Shown: one piece after another, positions 5,102-23,461 of the stretch | Layout: each line of letters opens with the position of its first letter | Position numbering within the stretch: position 1 is the stretch's first letter | Virus record (IMG/VR): IMGVR_UViG_2585427763_000004 | Source of the DNA: a virus | Taxonomy: Duplodnaviria; Heunggongvirae; Uroviricota; Caudoviricetes | Direction: 5' to 3' (one strand) | Length of the DNA stretch: 47,112 nucleotides | Notes under the pieces: generated by a model | What the model was told of the DNA's origin: nothing | Databases searched by the model: none | What the model saw: only the letters and a program-made list of their open reading frames with translations | Translations under genes and position numbers: made by a program

Positions 5102-5124
5102 AAAAAAACCGCCTGAGCGCGGTT
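5102..5124 (-). terminator. Rho-independent terminator (minus-strand transcription)
   Basis: Plus-strand sequence AAAAAAACCGCctgagcGCGGTT. On the minus strand this reads stem AACCGC / GCGGTT followed by a U7 run. Confidence 0.45.
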
Positions 5125-5775
5125 ATGCGCCGTGAATGATTTCGGGTTTCCACGCCCGGCACCCGTTTTATGAGGTGCAGGTGCACTATAATTCCACCCG
5201 TTCTGGTTTTCAATAGCTACATTCAACATTTTCTCTACCTTTCATCACCGAAGTGAACTTTGTTGATGCGGTGCCTGGTGCCTCCAGGTGACGTTAACCA
5301 GTTAACAATTAACGTCGGATACAGAGCATTCCCGTTACGCCCGTAAAAGACCGCTTGTTTTAACTGTTCCGCGTGCGCTGAGCCGCATTCACCGCATCAC
5401 AAAATTCACTTTAAAAAGGGCGGCAGAGCAGTCACGGAGTAGAACTGATACCGCCAAAAGTCACCAGAAAATTGATAACAGAGGGCGTTGCAGCGGAGTT
5501 GTCACTTAAGCGTATGGTCAACCTGACAACCCGGTGTCCTCAACGGGGGAAGGAATAACCCCGCCATACTTACCGCCGCGCCATTTCGCGGATTGCCACA
5601 ACCGGAAGCGCACGATCGAATTAAATTTAACGACGACCTATACAGAGAGACTAACTTCTCCGGGCGCTTTCGTGTTATGCCCTGACTTTTCAGGGATATA
5701 TCCTTTTCAGTAAACTGTCAGTGCCGGATTCTTATCCGTGTCCGGCGCACGCACTCTACCTCACCTGTGAATAAA

Positions 5776-11970: not shown

Positions 11971-12229
11971 ATACAGCGAACGCTATTGGTTTAGTTGGAT
12001 ATTTACTGTGCCGGACAAAAACGGTTTGCAGGGAAATCTTAGTTAAGTAGAATGACTGTGGGTGCTTGAGGCTATCTGTCTCAGGCATGAACACCAAAAG
12101 GCAGATAGAGAAAAGCCCCAGTTAACATTACGCGTCCTGCAAGACGCTTAACATTAATCTGAGGCCATATCTATGCTCTACACACGTAGGTTAGCCTCTT
12201 ACGTGCCGAAAGGCAAGGAGAAGCAGGCT

Positions 12230-12385
12230 ATGAAGCAGCAAAAGGCGATGCTAATCGCCCTGATCGTCATCTGTTTAACCGTCATAGTGACGGCACTGGT
12301 AACGAGGAAAGACCTCTGCGAGGTACGAATCCGAACCGGCCAGACGGAGGTCGCTGTCTTCACAGCTTACGAACCTGAGGAGTAA
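12230..12385 (+). CDS. hok: Hok/Gef-family type I toxin
   Basis: 51-aa product MKQQKAMLIALIVICLTVIVTALVTRKDLCEVRIRTGQTEVAVFTAYEPEE. It has the family pattern: TM helix, then LTRK-x-LCE[IV]R ... E-V-A-x-F-x-AYE. A longer upstream in-frame reading frame starts at 12173. A terminator follows. Confidence 0.75.
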   Translation: MKQQKAMLIALIVICLTVIVTALVTRKDLCEVRIRTGQTEVAVFTAYEPEE

Positions 12386-17753: not shown

Positions 17754-18146
17754 ATACATATCTGGATTATCACCGGTTACGGTAAAAAGTGATTGCTTAC
17801 TGTTTTTGTGAATGGCATTGCAGCAGCCGGATAATGTCAGTGCTGGCTGACGGTGTGCTGGTGGCGGGTGTGGTGGTTGCTGCTTTCCCGTTGCTGAAAA
17901 AGAAAACGCCAGACTGTTAGCCGGGTATCAGTTAGCGGGAGAAATTTTTAAATACTTCACAATTCAGGCGGTTGACTGTTGTCTGGTTTGCGGGGAGTTT
18001 GTTAAAAGAAACTGGCATGGTGAATCCCCCTGTGCGGAGGGGCAATCAGCGAGTAGGTATATGGGATAATCGCGGATTCAGGTGCTGGTACTGAATTCAC
18101 CGGGAGGCACCCGGCACCATGCAATGGCACATAGCGCCACTCTCCA

Positions 18147-18175
18147 GCCCCTCTCCGGAGGGGCTGTTTATATTG
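18147..18175 (+). terminator. Rho-independent terminator
   Basis: Perfect 7-bp stem GCCCCTC tccg GAGGGGC followed by TGTTTATATTGATTTT. Confidence 0.55.
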
Positions 18176-18200: not shown

Positions 18201-18536
18201 TTATGGACTTTGTTGTTTTAGCCCATAAGGACATATTTGCAGAGTGCAACGGTTATTAAAGCATTCATTCAATACGTTATCTGTATTTGTAGGGCATTCC
18301 TGGCTGTTTTTGATTAAATTCCAGAATGTTTTATTGAATGGTACTACGTTGTAAATGGTTACAGGCAGCACTTTGTTATTGAGCATGATGCCTGTGTGAG
18401 TCAGTGTAAATATACTTTCAGGAGGTAAGAAAGCATCCGATTGATACCAGATTATTAATTTTATTTTACTCCATATGACTGAAAAAGATATTCCGCATGA
18501 TGGCTGGATAACTGTATCAATCACAATCCACTTCAT
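18201..18536 (-). CDS. Hypothetical Cys-containing protein (AT-rich, opposite strand to late operon)
   Basis: 111-aa ORF, low GC. C-terminal cysteine cluster [27 protein letters not shown] long open frame in AT-rich DNA is unlikely by chance. Confidence 0.35.
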
Positions 18537-18796
18537 TTAGTTTCCTTGTTTATGCCTTGCTGGTGATGTTCTGAAAAGTATAAATGATATTTTTGATTGT
18601 AAACCATAGAGCAGAATTATTTTTCTGATGTTGTTTATTGTTTATTTAAATGCAGGGTGGTTTATATCTCGTCTTGTAGTTTATCCATGCATATCTGCTT
18701 GATGATGAGGTTTTTAATTAAGGTATGGTTTTGTGTTTTTTCTGTATTACATGTCAGGTATTTTAAAGAATCATTTTTCAGATGGTGGAAAGAACC

Positions 18797-20650
18797 ATGG
18801 CATTTAAACACTATGATGTTGTCAGGGCGGCGTCGCCGTCAGATCTTGCGGAAAAGCTGACACATAAACTGAAAGAGGGCTGGCAGCCGTTTGGTAGTCC
18901 GGTGGCCATAACCCCTTATACCCTGATGCAGGCGATTGCAGCAGAAGGTGATGTGGTCGTCAGTGGTGCAACTGAGCCGGAGTGGTACTACGTCATCGTA
19001 CTGGCCGGGCAGTCCAATGCCATGGCTTACGGTGAAGGGCTTCCGCTTCCGGATTCATACGATGCGCCCCATCCGCGCATTAAGCAACTGGCCCGTCGTA
19101 ACACAGTGACTCCCGGTGGTGAAGTATGCGTATTTAACGACATCATTCCTGCTGACCATTGTCTGCATGATGTTCAGGATATGAGTACGATTAACCATCC
19201 CCGGGCTGACCTGAGCAAAGGGCAGTACGGCTGTGTCGGACAGGGCTTACATATTGCCAAAAAACTGCTTCCGTATATCCCTAATAACGCGGGGATCCTG
19301 CTGGTACCATGCTGTCGTGGTGGTTCGGCATTCACCCAGGGCACGGAGGGGACATTCAGCGAGTCCACGGGGGCCAGTCAGGATTCGGCTCGCTGGGGAG
19401 TGGGTAAGCCGTTATATCAGGATCTGCTTTTCCGCACGAAGGCAGCATTGCAGAAAAACCCGAAAAACGTTTTGCTGGCGATATGCTGGATGCAGGGGGA
19501 ATTCGATATGACGAATGCCAGTTACGCCCAGCAGCCAGCAGCATTTCTTGCAATGGTACAGCAGTTCCGTGCTGACCTTGCCGGGCTGGCGGCGCAGTGT
19601 CACGGTGGAAGTCCGGCATCAGTCCCCTGGATTTGTGGCGACACGACATACGCGTGGAAACAAGAACACGGTACGCAATATGAAGTGGTATATGGTGCAT
19701 ATAAAGGTAAAGAATCCCAGCAGATTTATTTTGTTCCCTTTATGACCGATGGTAGCGGAGTTAATACACCGACAAACAACCCGTCAGAAGATCCTGATAT
19801 TGTCGGGTCTGGTTATTACGGTTCGGCATCCCGAACGAACAAAAACTGGGTATCATCAAATCGCCCGACGCATTTCAGCTCATGGGCGCGTCGTGGCATT
19901 ATTCCCGATCGTATGGCAACCGCTATTCTGAACGCAGCCGGGCGCACCTCAGCCTTCATCAGTGGTAAGGCACCGGAAATCAAACCCTCGCCCGGCGGCG
20001 ACACGCCATCGGGTCCGTCTGCAGATACGTCCGTTCGCACAATCTCCCTGCTGCCGACAGCCGGAGAGGCTGCTGCGCAGGGCTGGAGCATTAAGAATGG
20101 CGGAATTCAGTTGTCAGATGGTGTATTTAAGATCACCAAGCAGAGCAATAAAGCCTGGTCCCTGACGCGCCCGGTGGATGACGCAGTCTCCCTGCTGACA
20201 CGGGGTGGCAGACTGAGCTGTAAGTTTCGACTGTCAGGCGCACTGACCAACAACCAGTTCGGTCTGGGAATTTATCTGTATACCGATGTAGCGTTACCTG
20301 ACGTCGTGGCGATGACCGGGACTGGTAACCCGTTCCTGATGTCGTTCTTCACCCAGACCACAGACGGCAAACTGAATCTGATGCATCACAAGAAAGCCGG
20401 AAACACAAAGTTGGGCGAGTTCGGGAATTACAGTAACGACTGGCAGACGCTGGAGCTGGTGTTCACCGCCGGCAGTGCCACGGTTACTCCGAAACTGAAT
20501 GGAGTGGCTGGCCCGGCATTCCAGGTCATAAAAGACAGTCTGACAGTGGGACTAAATGCACTGACGCTGACGGATATTACCAAAAATGCAACGTATGGCG
20601 TTGAGATAGAAAGTCTGGTGCTGGAGATAAATGCACCGGCATCATCATAA
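18797..20650 (+). CDS. nanS: NanS-p-like sialate 9-O-acetylesterase (DUF1737 N-terminal domain + SASA/SGNH esterase domain)
   Basis: Track ORF 18782..20650; the ATG at 18797 gives [21 protein letters not shown] (DUF1737-like). Esterase block [17 protein letters not shown] with the GQSN motif. Occupies the slot downstream of tRNAs/stx in Stx-type phages (recalled). Confidence 0.7.
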
Positions 20651-20799
20651 AAAGTGAGCCAGTCAAATGGAAGGTATCGTTAAACTCACCGGTAGTGTCA
20701 GTGGGTCGTCTGAGACGCCTGCATGAGTTATCAGAGCCATCAGTACTTAACTGGTGGCTTTTTTATTGTTGTCAGCTTCCGGATAACGGGAGACGGGGT

Positions 20800-21015
20800 A
20801 TGTACCAGATGGAAAAAATCACAACAGGTGTGTCATACACCACGTCAGCGGTGGGAACGGGCTACTGGTTCCTGCAGTTGCTGGACAGGGTTTCCCCGTC
20901 TCAGTGGGCGGCAATAGGCGTGCTGGGGAGTCTGCTGTTTGGGCTGCTGACATATCTGACTAACCTGTATTTCAAAATCAGAGAGGACCGTCGTAAGGCT
21001 GCACGGGGAGAGTAA
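20800..21015 (+). CDS. S: Pinholin, S21-like class II holin
   Basis: 71-aa product [71 protein letters not shown] is near-identical over most of its length to phage 21 S as recalled. Dual-start motif M-Y-Q-M. RBS GGAG. Confidence 0.8.
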
Positions 21016-21019
21016 TTCA

Positions 21020-21334
21020 ATGACTCAAAACTATAAACTGATTGTGAAAGGGATCCGCAATTTTGAGAATAAAGTTACGGTAACTTTAGCGTTACGGGAC
21101 AAAAAACGCTTTGACGGTGAAATTTTTGACCTGGACATCTCGCTGGACCGTGTTGAAGGTGCCGCGCTGGAGTTTTATGAGGCAGCAGCCAGAAGGAGCA
21201 TCAGACAGGTCTTCCTGGATGTTGCTGCCGGGTTATGTGAAGGGGACGAGCTGTTGCCAGAAACGCGCCCCTGTTCAGAGGCGCGGTATACCATAAAAAT
21301 TAACAGTTCTGATAACTCGATTACGGGTTGTTAG
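21020..21334 (+). CDS. Hypothetical protein inserted between holin and endolysin
   Basis: 104-aa ORF with an RBS-like GGGGAGAG upstream. No motif recognised. Its position inside the lysis cassette is atypical for lambda. Confidence 0.45.
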   Translation: MTQNYKLIVKGIRNFENKVTVTLALRDKKRFDGEIFDLDISLDRVEGAALEFYEAAARRSIRQVFLDVAAGLCEGDELLPETRPCSEARYTIKINSSDNSITGC

Positions 21335-21389
21335 CTTTTTGCAGTTGGCTTTCCAGTATCTTTCATTGGTAGCATCCTGATAAATATCC

Positions 21390-21923
21390 ATGAGCGCAAA
21401 AATCAAATACGGCCTGTCAGCTGCTGTTCTGGCGCTGATTGCTGCAGGCGCGTCTGCTCCTCAGATACTTGACCAGTTTCTGGACGAAAAAGAGGGTAAC
21501 CACACAACGGCATACCGCGATGGTTCCGGCATCTGGACCATCTGTCGGGGGGCCACGATGGTGGATGGAAAACCCGTTTTTCCCGGTATGAAACTGTCGA
21601 AGGAAAAATGCGACCAGGTCAACGCCATTGAGCGTGATAAGGCGCTGGCATGGGTGGAGAAAAACATCAAAGTGCCATTGAGCGAACCCCAGAAAGCGGG
21701 GATCGCGTCATTCTGTCCGTACAACATTGGTCCCGGTAAGTGTTTCCCGTCGACGTTTTATAAACGAATTAATGCAGGTGATCGCAGGGGAGCGTGTGAG
21801 GCGATTCGCTGGTGGATTAAGGACGGTGGCAGAGACTGCCGTATTCGTTCAAACAACTGCTACGGTCAGGTATCCCGTCGTGACCAGGAGAGCGCGCTGG
21901 CGTGCTGGGGTATCGACAGATAA
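21390..21923 (+). CDS. R: SAR endolysin (GH24 T4-type lysozyme with N-terminal signal-anchor-release domain)
   Basis: 177-aa ORF. N-terminal weakly hydrophobic Gly/Ala-rich segment GLSAAVLALIAAGASA. Catalytic E-x8-D-x5-T pattern (EGNHTTAYRDGSGIWT). Pairs with a pinholin as in phage 21. Confidence 0.85.
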   Translation: MSAKIKYGLSAAVLALIAAGASAPQILDQFLDEKEGNHTTAYRDGSGIWTICRGATMVDGKPVFPGMKLSKEKCDQVNAIERDKALAWVEKNIKVPLSEPQKAGIASFCPYNIGPGKCFPSTFYKRINAGDRRGACEAIRWWIKDGGRDCRIRSNNCYGQVSRRDQESALACWGIDR

Positions 21924-22013
21924 GCAGAATATTTTGCTGAAAAATAAGGCATGGCCACGCGGGCGGATAACATGAAATCCTGCGAAGTGGCGAAACGTAA
22001 GTGAATAAAAGTA

Positions 22014-22050
22014 AAAACCCCGTTTGTTGGCACCAAGCGGGGTTTTGTGT
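22014..22050 (+). terminator. Possible rho-independent terminator
   Basis: AAAACCCCG ... CGGGGTTTTGTGTTT with a long loop. Weaker than the other terminators called. Confidence 0.35.
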
Positions 22051-22121
22051 TTCCTGACTCCGGAAAAGTCAAAGGAGAAAGTGTGTTTGATTTTAGCAAA
22101 CTGATTCGGGAGATTCGAGTG

Positions 22122-22220
22122 ATGGCTGAAAAATTATCCACCTGGAAGTTCATTCTTATCTGGCTGGTGTTTGTGATTATGGCCTCCGGTTATTTCATCG
22201 GTCAGATACGCTGGTGGTGA
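22122..22220 (+). CDS. Possible small membrane peptide (32 aa)
   Basis: Manual translation: [32 protein letters not shown], stop 2 nt before the Rz ATG, RBS-like GGGAG upstream. Could be spurious. Confidence 0.25.
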
Positions 22221-22221
22221 A

Positions 22222-22686
22222 ATGAACCGCGTACTGTGCGTGGTCATCATTGCCCTGCTGGTGGCCTGTGGTGCGCTTAGTCTGGGGCTGAATCATTACC
22301 GTGATAACGCCATTACCTACAAAGCCCAGCGCGACAAAAATGTCAGAGAACTGAAGCTGGCGAACGCGGCAATTACTGACATGCAGATGCGTCAGCGTGA
22401 TGTTGCTGCGCTCGATGCAAAATACACGAAGGAGTTAGCTGATGCGAAAGCTGAAAATGATGCTCTGCGTGATGATGTTGCCGCTGGTCGTCGTCGGTTG
22501 CACATCAAAGCAGTCTGTCAGTCAGTGCGTGAAGCCACCACCGCCTCCGGCGTGGATAATGCAGCCTCCCCCCGACTGGCAGACACCGCTGAACGGGATT
22601 ATTTCACCCTCAGAGCGCGACTGATAATAATGCAAAAACAACTTGAAGGGGCACAGCTATACATTCGAGAGCAATGCCTCAGATAA
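22222..22686 (+). CDS. Rz: Rz i-spanin (inner-membrane spanin subunit)
   Basis: 154-aa ORF. N-terminal TM helix, coiled-coil-like periplasmic domain. Contains an embedded +1-frame lipoprotein ORF (Rz1). Confidence 0.8.
22442..22624 (+). CDS. Rz1: Rz1 o-spanin (outer-membrane lipoprotein), embedded in Rz
   Basis: 60-aa ORF wholly within Rz in another frame. Lipobox LVVVGC, proline-rich mature part ([16 protein letters not shown]). True start may be an internal Met. Confidence 0.7.
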
Positions 22687-22993
22687 AAACCGGCCAAGGA
22701 TAATCCGCTGAAGATTCGCCGGTGGCTAAAGTGTGCCAAGAGTTCAATTTACGCAATTACTCCTGTCGATGCTATGCACCGTCTTTGTGAAGTCAATGGA
22801 TACCTGATTTATTTCTGTGCGCTGTATCGTCGCTGTACTCTTGCATTAATTATGACTGTAGCCTGACGGGGAACTCCTTCTGCACAAGTGTGGGGGAATA
22901 ATCAAAAACGATGCACACCGGGGTTACCGGGTACACATATTTCATCATGCCAGCGAGTCCGGTTCTGGTACGGAAGAAACCGGACGTTATGAT

Positions 22994-23404
22994 TTAGTGC
23001 GGAAATATTTGTGTAGTGTTCTGAATGTTCTCAGTAAAGAGTAATGAATTATCAAAGGTATAGTAATATCTTTTGTTTTCGTGGATATTTGTAATCCATC
23101 TGAAAACCCCTGCTGTAGCAAGATTTTTCCTGTATTCGTAAAATGATAACTCTCCTGATTTGAATCCTTTTAAGGTGGCTTCTATAAGGCATTTATTTTT
23201 TGAAAATCTTACATTTACAACCTTACCCTGTCCTTTTATTAAAACCGTATTATCGTTTTCAAGAACAAGATGAATATTCTCTGTGGCTAAATAGTAAATG
23301 TAATGTGAGACATTGTGACGTTTTAGTTCAGAATAAAACCAGTGATAGTTTAAATTATTTCGCACTTTATCGAATATTTGTTTAAAAATGGCAACCTGAG
23401 CCAT
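22994..23404 (-). CDS. Hypothetical protein (low-GC moron; YbcV/DUF1398-like position, tentative)
   Basis: Track ORF 22994..23419; likely start at MAQVAIFKQ (136 aa). AT-rich. Occupies the bor/ybcV slot between the lysis genes and cos. Confidence 0.4.
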
Positions 23405-23461
23405 TGTAGTACCTTCCATGTGATATGAGGGGGCGTAGTCTGCACGATTATCTAAATTGCT

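Follow-up and report, generated by a model that had tools for sequence, protein, structure and literature searches.

The 104-codon open reading frame (ORF) at positions 21020-21334 (+) of IMG/VR virus record IMGVR_UViG_2585427763_000004, a 47,112-nucleotide (nt) stretch of DNA from a virus of the class Caudoviricetes (the whole stretch is called the window below), is a real gene whose 104-amino acid (aa) product almost certainly belongs to the YdfR/DUF1327 family. The gene, referred to here as ydfR, lies between S, which encodes a holin of the S21 (pinholin) type, and R, which encodes an endolysin of the signal-anchor-release (SAR) type. It is very probably dispensable cargo and not a lysis component. 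The explanation that we favour overall, and consider fairly probable, is that lambdoid late operons carry the gene as a non-essential accessory whose product acts on host RNA metabolism.

The predicted protein matches Pfam family DUF1327 (PF07041) with a score of 130.3 bits (cut-off 25), covering model positions 1-90 of 93, and matches phrog_2735 with an E-value of 1e-54. Identity to YdfR of Escherichia coli K-12 is 65% overall and 81% (58/72 residues) in the N-terminal core. E. coli ST648 has identical DNA with the same gene order, annotated by NCBI as encoding a DUF1327 domain-containing protein. A first-pass annotation, made from the window sequence alone, had described an unknown gene with no recognisable motif; given the Pfam match and the ST648 annotation, this description does not stand. 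Nor is an intervening gene unusual at this site, as had been supposed: the K-12 prophage Qin has the same order, and 4248 of 5426 complete E. coli genomes (approximately 78%) contain similar DNA, in up to 8 places per genome. Gene, family, and position are already recorded in Pfam, RefSeq, and the K-12 annotation, and NCBIfam has no model for the protein. The family is narrow, with 259 clusters at 90% identity (those that are named come from Escherichia, Shigella, and Salmonella), and a profile search of 1.84 billion representatives recovered only 74 members.

The ORF has an ATG start codon located 4 nt beyond the holin stop codon (21013-21015), and its translation is identical to that quoted in the first-pass annotation. 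The Shine-Dalgarno sequence GGGGAGAG (21005-21012), located within the last codons of the holin gene, precedes this ATG. These coordinates, the Shine-Dalgarno sequence, and the Pfam matches of the flanking genes bear out the original placement of an ORF with a plausible ribosome-binding site between an S21-like holin and a SAR lysozyme. The 4-nt gap is found in every close relative with the holin in view. The 80 close relatives drawn from IMG/VR include 79 copies that could be evaluated, and the ORF is intact in each of them. Over the first 72 codons, the ratio of nonsynonymous to synonymous substitution rates (dN/dS) is 0.26-0.34 in comparisons with the K-12 and Stx-phage alleles (dS 0.4-1.7). 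Because of this ratio, the uniformly intact copies, and the strong Pfam match, we regard the ORF as more than a chance reading frame.

An AlphaFold2 model built on a more diverse alignment consists of three antiparallel β-strands (residues 5-14, 18-27, and 33-43) followed by a long helix (residues 50-74). The predicted local distance difference test score (pLDDT) is 75-93 per 10-residue block across residues 1-70, and residues 75-104 are modelled with low confidence (pLDDT 41-56). In 25 sequences with identities down to 25%, there is no variation at Y53, E54, or A57, and conservation reaches 90% or more at M1, Y5, L7, and G47; the window protein has all seven residues. An exhaustive profile search recovered stand-alone homologues of 72-76 aa that correspond to the core alone, as well as one homologue with two copies of the core. 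Family forms of 103, 104, 114, 116, 161, 176, and 263-287 aa occur, with tails that diverge past approximately residue 75; when long members (161-268 aa) were searched against Pfam, DUF1327 alone scored and the extensions had no match. On the basis of prediction and comparison, the functional unit is a β-β-β-helix domain of approximately 72 residues, and the 30-residue tail of the window protein, EGDELLPETRPCSEARYTIKINSSDNSITGC, is one of several interchangeable family tails. At the DNA level, a conserved left block (the holin gene and the ydfR core) and a conserved right block (the R leader and R) are separated by a variable segment that runs from approximately 21271-21321 to 21374. In the Stx1a phage Stx1_14040, an unannotated 233-aa reverse ORF (L005 2254-2955 [-]) shares approximately 250 nt with the 3' part of the coding sequence annotated for a 263-aa YdfR-family protein; for some of the 'long' YdfR forms, the extension may be read-through antisense to inserted cargo and not genuine.

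The highest mean hydropathy of any 19-residue segment in the 104-aa protein is 0.75 (the holin reaches 1.70 and the SAR domain 1.78), and its grand average of hydropathy is -0.27. No transmembrane segment was found, in agreement with the first-pass annotation, and prediction and comparison indicate a small, soluble, acidic cytoplasmic protein.

In the phage collection searched by tblastn, 436 records encode an S21-type holin; the DUF1327 core is present in 101 of these and absent from 335. Whether S21-type cassettes generally carry the insertion, a check proposed at the outset, therefore has a divided answer: a minority do and the majority do not. In the Stx2a phage VT2phi_272, R begins 4 nt after the S stop codon, exactly where ydfR begins in the window, and uses the same embedded GGGGAGAG (L023 2005-2025). 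The endolysin gene of phage cdtI likewise follows the holin gene directly, so ydfR is polymorphic for presence or absence between a conserved S and a conserved R. In Salmonella, a DUF1327 gene follows a holin of a different family (PF16080). Distant core-only homologues are encoded in tail-gene modules, apart from one that is upstream of unrelated holins (Table 1), and none of them occupies a holin-to-lysozyme slot. It is because of these absences, the tail-module homologues, the second holin family, and the lack of a transmembrane segment that we consider the gene dispensable cargo, and from these sequence comparisons we read the DUF1327 gene as a putative mobile accessory gene of late operons. 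The first-pass annotation had offered two guesses, of which a cargo gene riding the late transcript fits this evidence and a lysis regulator does not.

Of an original two-gene insert, the window retains ydfR and has lost the convergent neighbour by deletion. The relatives that share its tail (Salmonella prophage L018 and the metagenomic or assembled contigs L020 and L022) have 367-370 nt between ydfR and R, and this interval contains a convergent 79-aa ORF whose stop codon overlaps that of ydfR. When the window and ST648 are aligned to these three loci, a clean deletion of approximately 312 base pairs (bp) is apparent, with its junction at approximately 21374/21375 and a BLAST block boundary at 21374. 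What is left in the window encodes LPMKDTGKPTAKS (21331-21374 [-]), corresponding to the partner C-terminus LLPMKDIGKPTETKG. Where R is in view in the 104-aa relatives, the 55-nt gap of the window recurs in 50, and in 5 the gap is 370 nt long and contains the 79-aa ORF. Since Salmonella has the partner-bearing form alongside a ydfR of 66% identity and a holin of another family, a deletion in the window lineage is a more parsimonious explanation than an insertion in other lineages. Precisely at the ydfR stop, where the two convergent genes once met, is a weak terminator-like hairpin (21309-21334 [+]) of 11 pairs, 4 being G-C, with CTTTTTG after it. No Rfam family was matched within 20650-22700.

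A convergent ORF of 74-182 aa immediately follows the DUF1327 gene, often with overlapping 3' ends, in all of the distant loci examined. Such a partner is also present in Stx2 phage 86, PhiR12_1, Salmonella, L022, and the 114-aa and 268-aa E. coli forms; among the 80 close relatives, each form with a gap of at least 340 nt before R has one. The partner ORFs have neither a Pfam nor a PADLOC match, and homology among the partner types could not be demonstrated (best hhalign probability 25%; BLASTP E-values of at least 0.001 in a tiny database). Two partner ORFs share a weak match to phrog_6806, the sole link between types, and just 5 clusters among 5.8 billion proteins correspond to the 79-aa partner. 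The idea that all partners form one conserved family was rejected, as there are several types without demonstrable homology. Reverse-oriented cargo seems to tend to adjoin the DUF1327 gene, and a functional link between the two is possible.

In the mechanism that we propose, ydfR would be transcribed as part of the Q-dependent late transcript and translated from the Shine-Dalgarno sequence in the holin 3' end (as the anatomy of the region suggests), a site that the endolysin gene uses in phages lacking ydfR. By homology to K-12 YdfR, the core domain would bind the catalytic N-terminal half of host RNase E, plus RNA, and the protein would modulate RNA decay or processing late in infection, taking no part in holin triggering or murein degradation. 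For the window protein, this mechanism is tentative: possible, and short of probable. The K-12 data come from Göpel et al. (RNA Biol 2026, PMC13232886), in whose bacterial two-hybrid screen YdfR residues 1-72 were recovered three times. Two-hybrid signals with RNase E 1-597 were obtained for this fragment and for full-length YdfR, and both Rne 1-598-FLAG and much DNase-resistant nucleic acid co-purified with Strep-YdfR (PMC13232886). K-12 ydfR is silent under standard growth, and its overexpression causes neither toxicity nor a growth defect (PMC13232886). The interacting fragment is exactly the conserved core, of which 58 of 72 positions are identical in the window protein.

Several observations weigh against the view of ydfR as cargo with an effect on host RNA. 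Binding of RNase E and RNA was reported for the K-12 protein only, in one study using overexpression (PMC13232886), and the window allele differs from K-12 YdfR at 14 of the 72 positions of the interacting fragment. Few transcripts changed upon K-12 YdfR overexpression, and the authors could not exclude retention of the RNA by a contaminant (PMC13232886). Database searches offered no help: a BFVD search returned nothing, a PDB-chain profile search returned nothing below an E-value of 0.6, and PADLOC-DB 2.0 gave no match at E ≤ 0.1 for the protein, long family members, or six partner ORFs. In Escherichia, Shigella, and Salmonella, the gene is almost always found in the holin-lysozyme slot and tightly coupled to the holin, which would also fit a lysis-related role. 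Finally, the Keio ΔydfR mutant is among the hits of the CPRG (chlorophenol red-β-D-galactopyranoside) envelope-leakiness screen of Paradis-Bleau 2014 (cited in PMC13232886); this phenotype could plausibly arise instead from polarity of the kan cassette on rrrQ, the SAR lysozyme gene directly downstream.

The last two of these points favour a trans-acting lysis regulator, a protein that would tune pinholin triggering or the release or activation of the SAR endolysin and so add a timing layer over the S21 antiholin; the start codon 4 nt after the holin stop and the holin-embedded Shine-Dalgarno sequence also suit it. We nevertheless consider this role quite unlikely. Regulation of pinholins and SAR endolysins takes place in or at the membrane, whereas the YdfR-family protein is soluble with neither a transmembrane segment nor a signal sequence. 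The holin already has its own antiholin by virtue of a Met1/Met4 dual start, most S21-holin phages lack the gene, its distant homologues lie in tail modules, and its association with lysis genes is independent of the holin family. The Keio phenotype could be polar, and K-12 overexpression is without a growth defect (PMC13232886). It is also conceivable that the insert matters in cis, as a spacer that displaces R from the holin-embedded ribosome-binding site and lowers or uncouples endolysin translation relative to that of the holin, with the protein itself of little importance. The site that serves R in VT2phi_272 is indeed taken by ydfR in the window, where R is preceded by TCCTGATAAATATCC and no obvious Shine-Dalgarno sequence was seen in 21375-21392. 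As the whole explanation this is very unlikely: the dN/dS values and the invariant residues in 25-35%-identical homologues point to selection on the protein, homologues occur at loci with no R gene to regulate, and in K-12 the ydfR stop overlaps the rrrQ start, keeping the coupling. A cis effect on R translation is plausible as a side effect, and the insert may lower or uncouple endolysin translation in the window.

The recurrence of a convergent 74-182-aa ORF after the DUF1327 gene, together with the 13-codon remnant in the window, would also fit a two-gene module in which YdfR acts with or against its convergent neighbour, for example as a late-made antagonist of a cargo protein expressed in the lysogen or as a handler of a sense/antisense RNA pair; the window copy would then be an orphan. 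We judge such a module unlikely, as the partners are of several types, the partner-less form is the commonest (50 versus 5) and stays intact, K-12 and BP-4795 have no partner, and neither gene has a PADLOC match. A related and distinctly unlikely reading combines it with RNase E binding: YdfR would be a minimal adaptor, resembling a double-stranded RNA-binding domain, that docks on the RNase E catalytic half late in lambdoid infection, is functionally tied to convergent transcription, and directs or deflects cleavage of a sense/antisense RNA pair. Were this so, reverse-strand cargo expressed in the lysogen would be silenced, the late messages of R, Rz, and the tail genes would be safeguarded, and the window copy would have persisted after loss of its partner. 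The dsrm family (PF00035) was not matched at E ≤ 0.1 by the window protein or five family members. Fold-search matches of the YdfR-family protein, which were at noise level, and the PADLOC result speak against a toxin, defence, or anti-defence cargo, such as a protein that excludes superinfecting phages or one that inhibits a host immune protein, which we regard as most improbable. No σ70-like promoter was found between 20650 and 21400, making expression from the lysogen unlikely, and the toxin idea in particular was rejected because K-12 YdfR overexpression is not toxic (PMC13232886).

Coordinates of the features discussed are given in Table 1. Upstream of the cassette are a gene for a NanS-p-type sialate esterase (18782-20650), two tRNA genes, and a gene for a Q-like antiterminator, an arrangement that places the YdfR-family gene within the late operon. 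The SAR-like N-terminus of R has its highest 19-residue Kyte-Doolittle mean at residue 9.

Table 1. Positions of the lysis-region features of the window, of homologues and convergent ORFs in related loci (L numbers), and of Rfam matches in the window
Feature	Location	Strand	Basis or context
S21-type class II holin (pinholin type), 71 aa	20800..21015	+	PF04971 'Bacteriophage P21 holin S', E 9e-33; phrog_9876 holin
YdfR/DUF1327 conserved core, codons 1-74	21020..21241	+	PF07041, 130 bits; AlphaFold2; dN/dS; stand-alone homologues
Variable C-terminal tail, residues 75-104, and TAG stop	21242..21334	+	Alignment; tail classes in 80 relatives; pLDDT 41-56
Remnant of convergent 79-aa ORF, last 13 codons and stop	21331..21374	-	DNA alignment with relatives
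Short conserved lysozyme-gene leader TCCTGATAAATATCC	21375..21389	+	Invariant in DNA alignment of window, ST648, L018, L020, and L022
SAR-type endolysin R, phage lysozyme, 177 aa	21390..21923	+	PF00959, E 2e-24; phrog_7 endolysin; hydrophobic N-terminus
Rz spanin	22222..22686	+	PF03245, E 1e-52; last gene of lysis cassette
Rz1, embedded in Rz	22442..22624	+	Lipoprotein-like N-terminus
Convergent partner ORF	L003 2638-2952	-	Directly after DUF1327 gene
Convergent partner ORF	L004 2244-2504	-	Directly after DUF1327 gene
Convergent partner ORF	L018 3309-3548	-	Directly after DUF1327 gene
Convergent partner ORF	L008 3273-3821	-	Directly after DUF1327 gene
Convergent partner ORF	L011 335-616	-	Directly after DUF1327 gene
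Convergent partner ORF	L014 768-1070	-	Directly after DUF1327 gene
Convergent partner ORF	L016 3282-3506	-	Directly after DUF1327 gene
Distant core homologue	L007 446-664		After tape-measure gene
Distant core homologue	L008 3001-3231 (likewise L009, L010)		Between tail genes L and K
Distant core homologue	L012 1094-1312 (likewise L013)		After tail gene I
Distant core homologue, 94 aa	L016 3001-3285		Between tail genes I and J
Distant core homologue	L014 529-747		Upstream of unrelated holins
STnc100	17986-18175	+	Rfam
sok	12060-12235	+	Rfam
C4	4990-5077	-	Rfam
isrK	5102-5178	-	Rfam
DicF	5418-5469	-	Rfam

Other sites in this part of the prophage also carry additional genes. The 298-bp gap between R and Rz (21924-22221) contains a terminator-like hairpin (22014-22046) and a 57-codon ORF with a GTG start (22047-22220) and a hydrophobic C-terminus; in Stx phages, this slot is occupied by the ant antirepressor gene. 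Between the tRNA genes and the esterase gene is a 111-aa ORF (18201-18536 [-]), a further reverse-oriented cargo gene of the late region, whose counterpart in the matching ST648 prophage is annotated as anti-adapter protein IraM. A third slot lies downstream of Rz and holds differing cargo: a 'sce7726 family protein' and a 'beta family protein' before the terminase in the ST648 prophage (L001 7776-9405), and a 141-aa reverse ORF (22994-23419) in the window. Elsewhere in the prophage, Rfam matches above the gathering score were obtained for STnc100, which ends at a hairpin (18145-18166) upstream of the esterase and lysis genes, and for sok antitoxin RNA, C4 antisense RNA, isrK, and DicF.

As an ordinary member of a known family without an assigned function, in its canonical genomic position, the window gene carries little weight as a discovery. 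Its residual value lies in the YdfR/DUF1327 family, with similar DNA in more than three quarters of complete E. coli genomes. Three results narrow the question of what the family does: a 72-aa β3-α core, present in tail modules too, forms the functional unit; S21-type cassettes can do without the gene; and diverse small convergent ORFs recur beside it, one of which the window has lost. Taken with the RNase E and RNA binding of K-12 YdfR published in 2026 (PMC13232886), these results bear on a possible tuning of host RNA decay by temperate phages at a late stage of infection.

The closest characterized counterpart is K-12 YdfR (P76160, Qin prophage; gene at L002 3001-3312), which shares with the window protein the DUF1327 domain, the gene order (essQ-ydfR-rrrQ-rzpQ), and the 4-nt gap after the holin. 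The two proteins are of similar length (103 versus 104 aa) but their C-terminal tails are unrelated from approximately residue 73; in place of the K-12 overlap with rrrQ, the window has a 55-nt spacer with the remnant of the deleted reverse ORF. The YdfR genes of Stx and other lambdoid phages (BP-4795 ORF47, Stx2-converting phage 86 orf5, mEp460, and PhiR12_1) occupy the same slot directly after an S21-type holin and encode the same core domain. The Stx-type core allele (MKKKYELVVKG...) is approximately 55% identical to that of the window, the tailed forms span 114-268 aa, and the gene is often followed by an ORF on the reverse strand. The authors of the K-12 study place YdfR among RapZ-like proteins that bind the catalytic half of RNase E, and suggest that these could either regulate the activity of the enzyme like T4 Srd or present transcripts like RapZ (PMC13232886); we found no sequence or fold relationship between YdfR and either T4 Srd or RapZ. 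Antiholins and other lysis regulators (of the S21-71 antiholin, T4 RI, and P1 LydB type) differ from the window protein both in their membrane or periplasmic location and in their obligate co-occurrence with a holin or endolysin, given the patchy distribution of ydfR among S21-holin records, its tail-module homologues, and its pairing with a PF16080 holin. A further comparison is with morons, accessory genes located between conserved late genes, such as bor and lom of lambda. The window gene differs from lambdoid morons in that no promoter of its own was detected and it is accompanied only by the weak hairpin at its stop codon, such that it seems to depend on late transcription and on the holin Shine-Dalgarno sequence; it resembles them in its presence or absence between conserved neighbours, its occurrence in several late-operon slots, and its mosaic boundaries.
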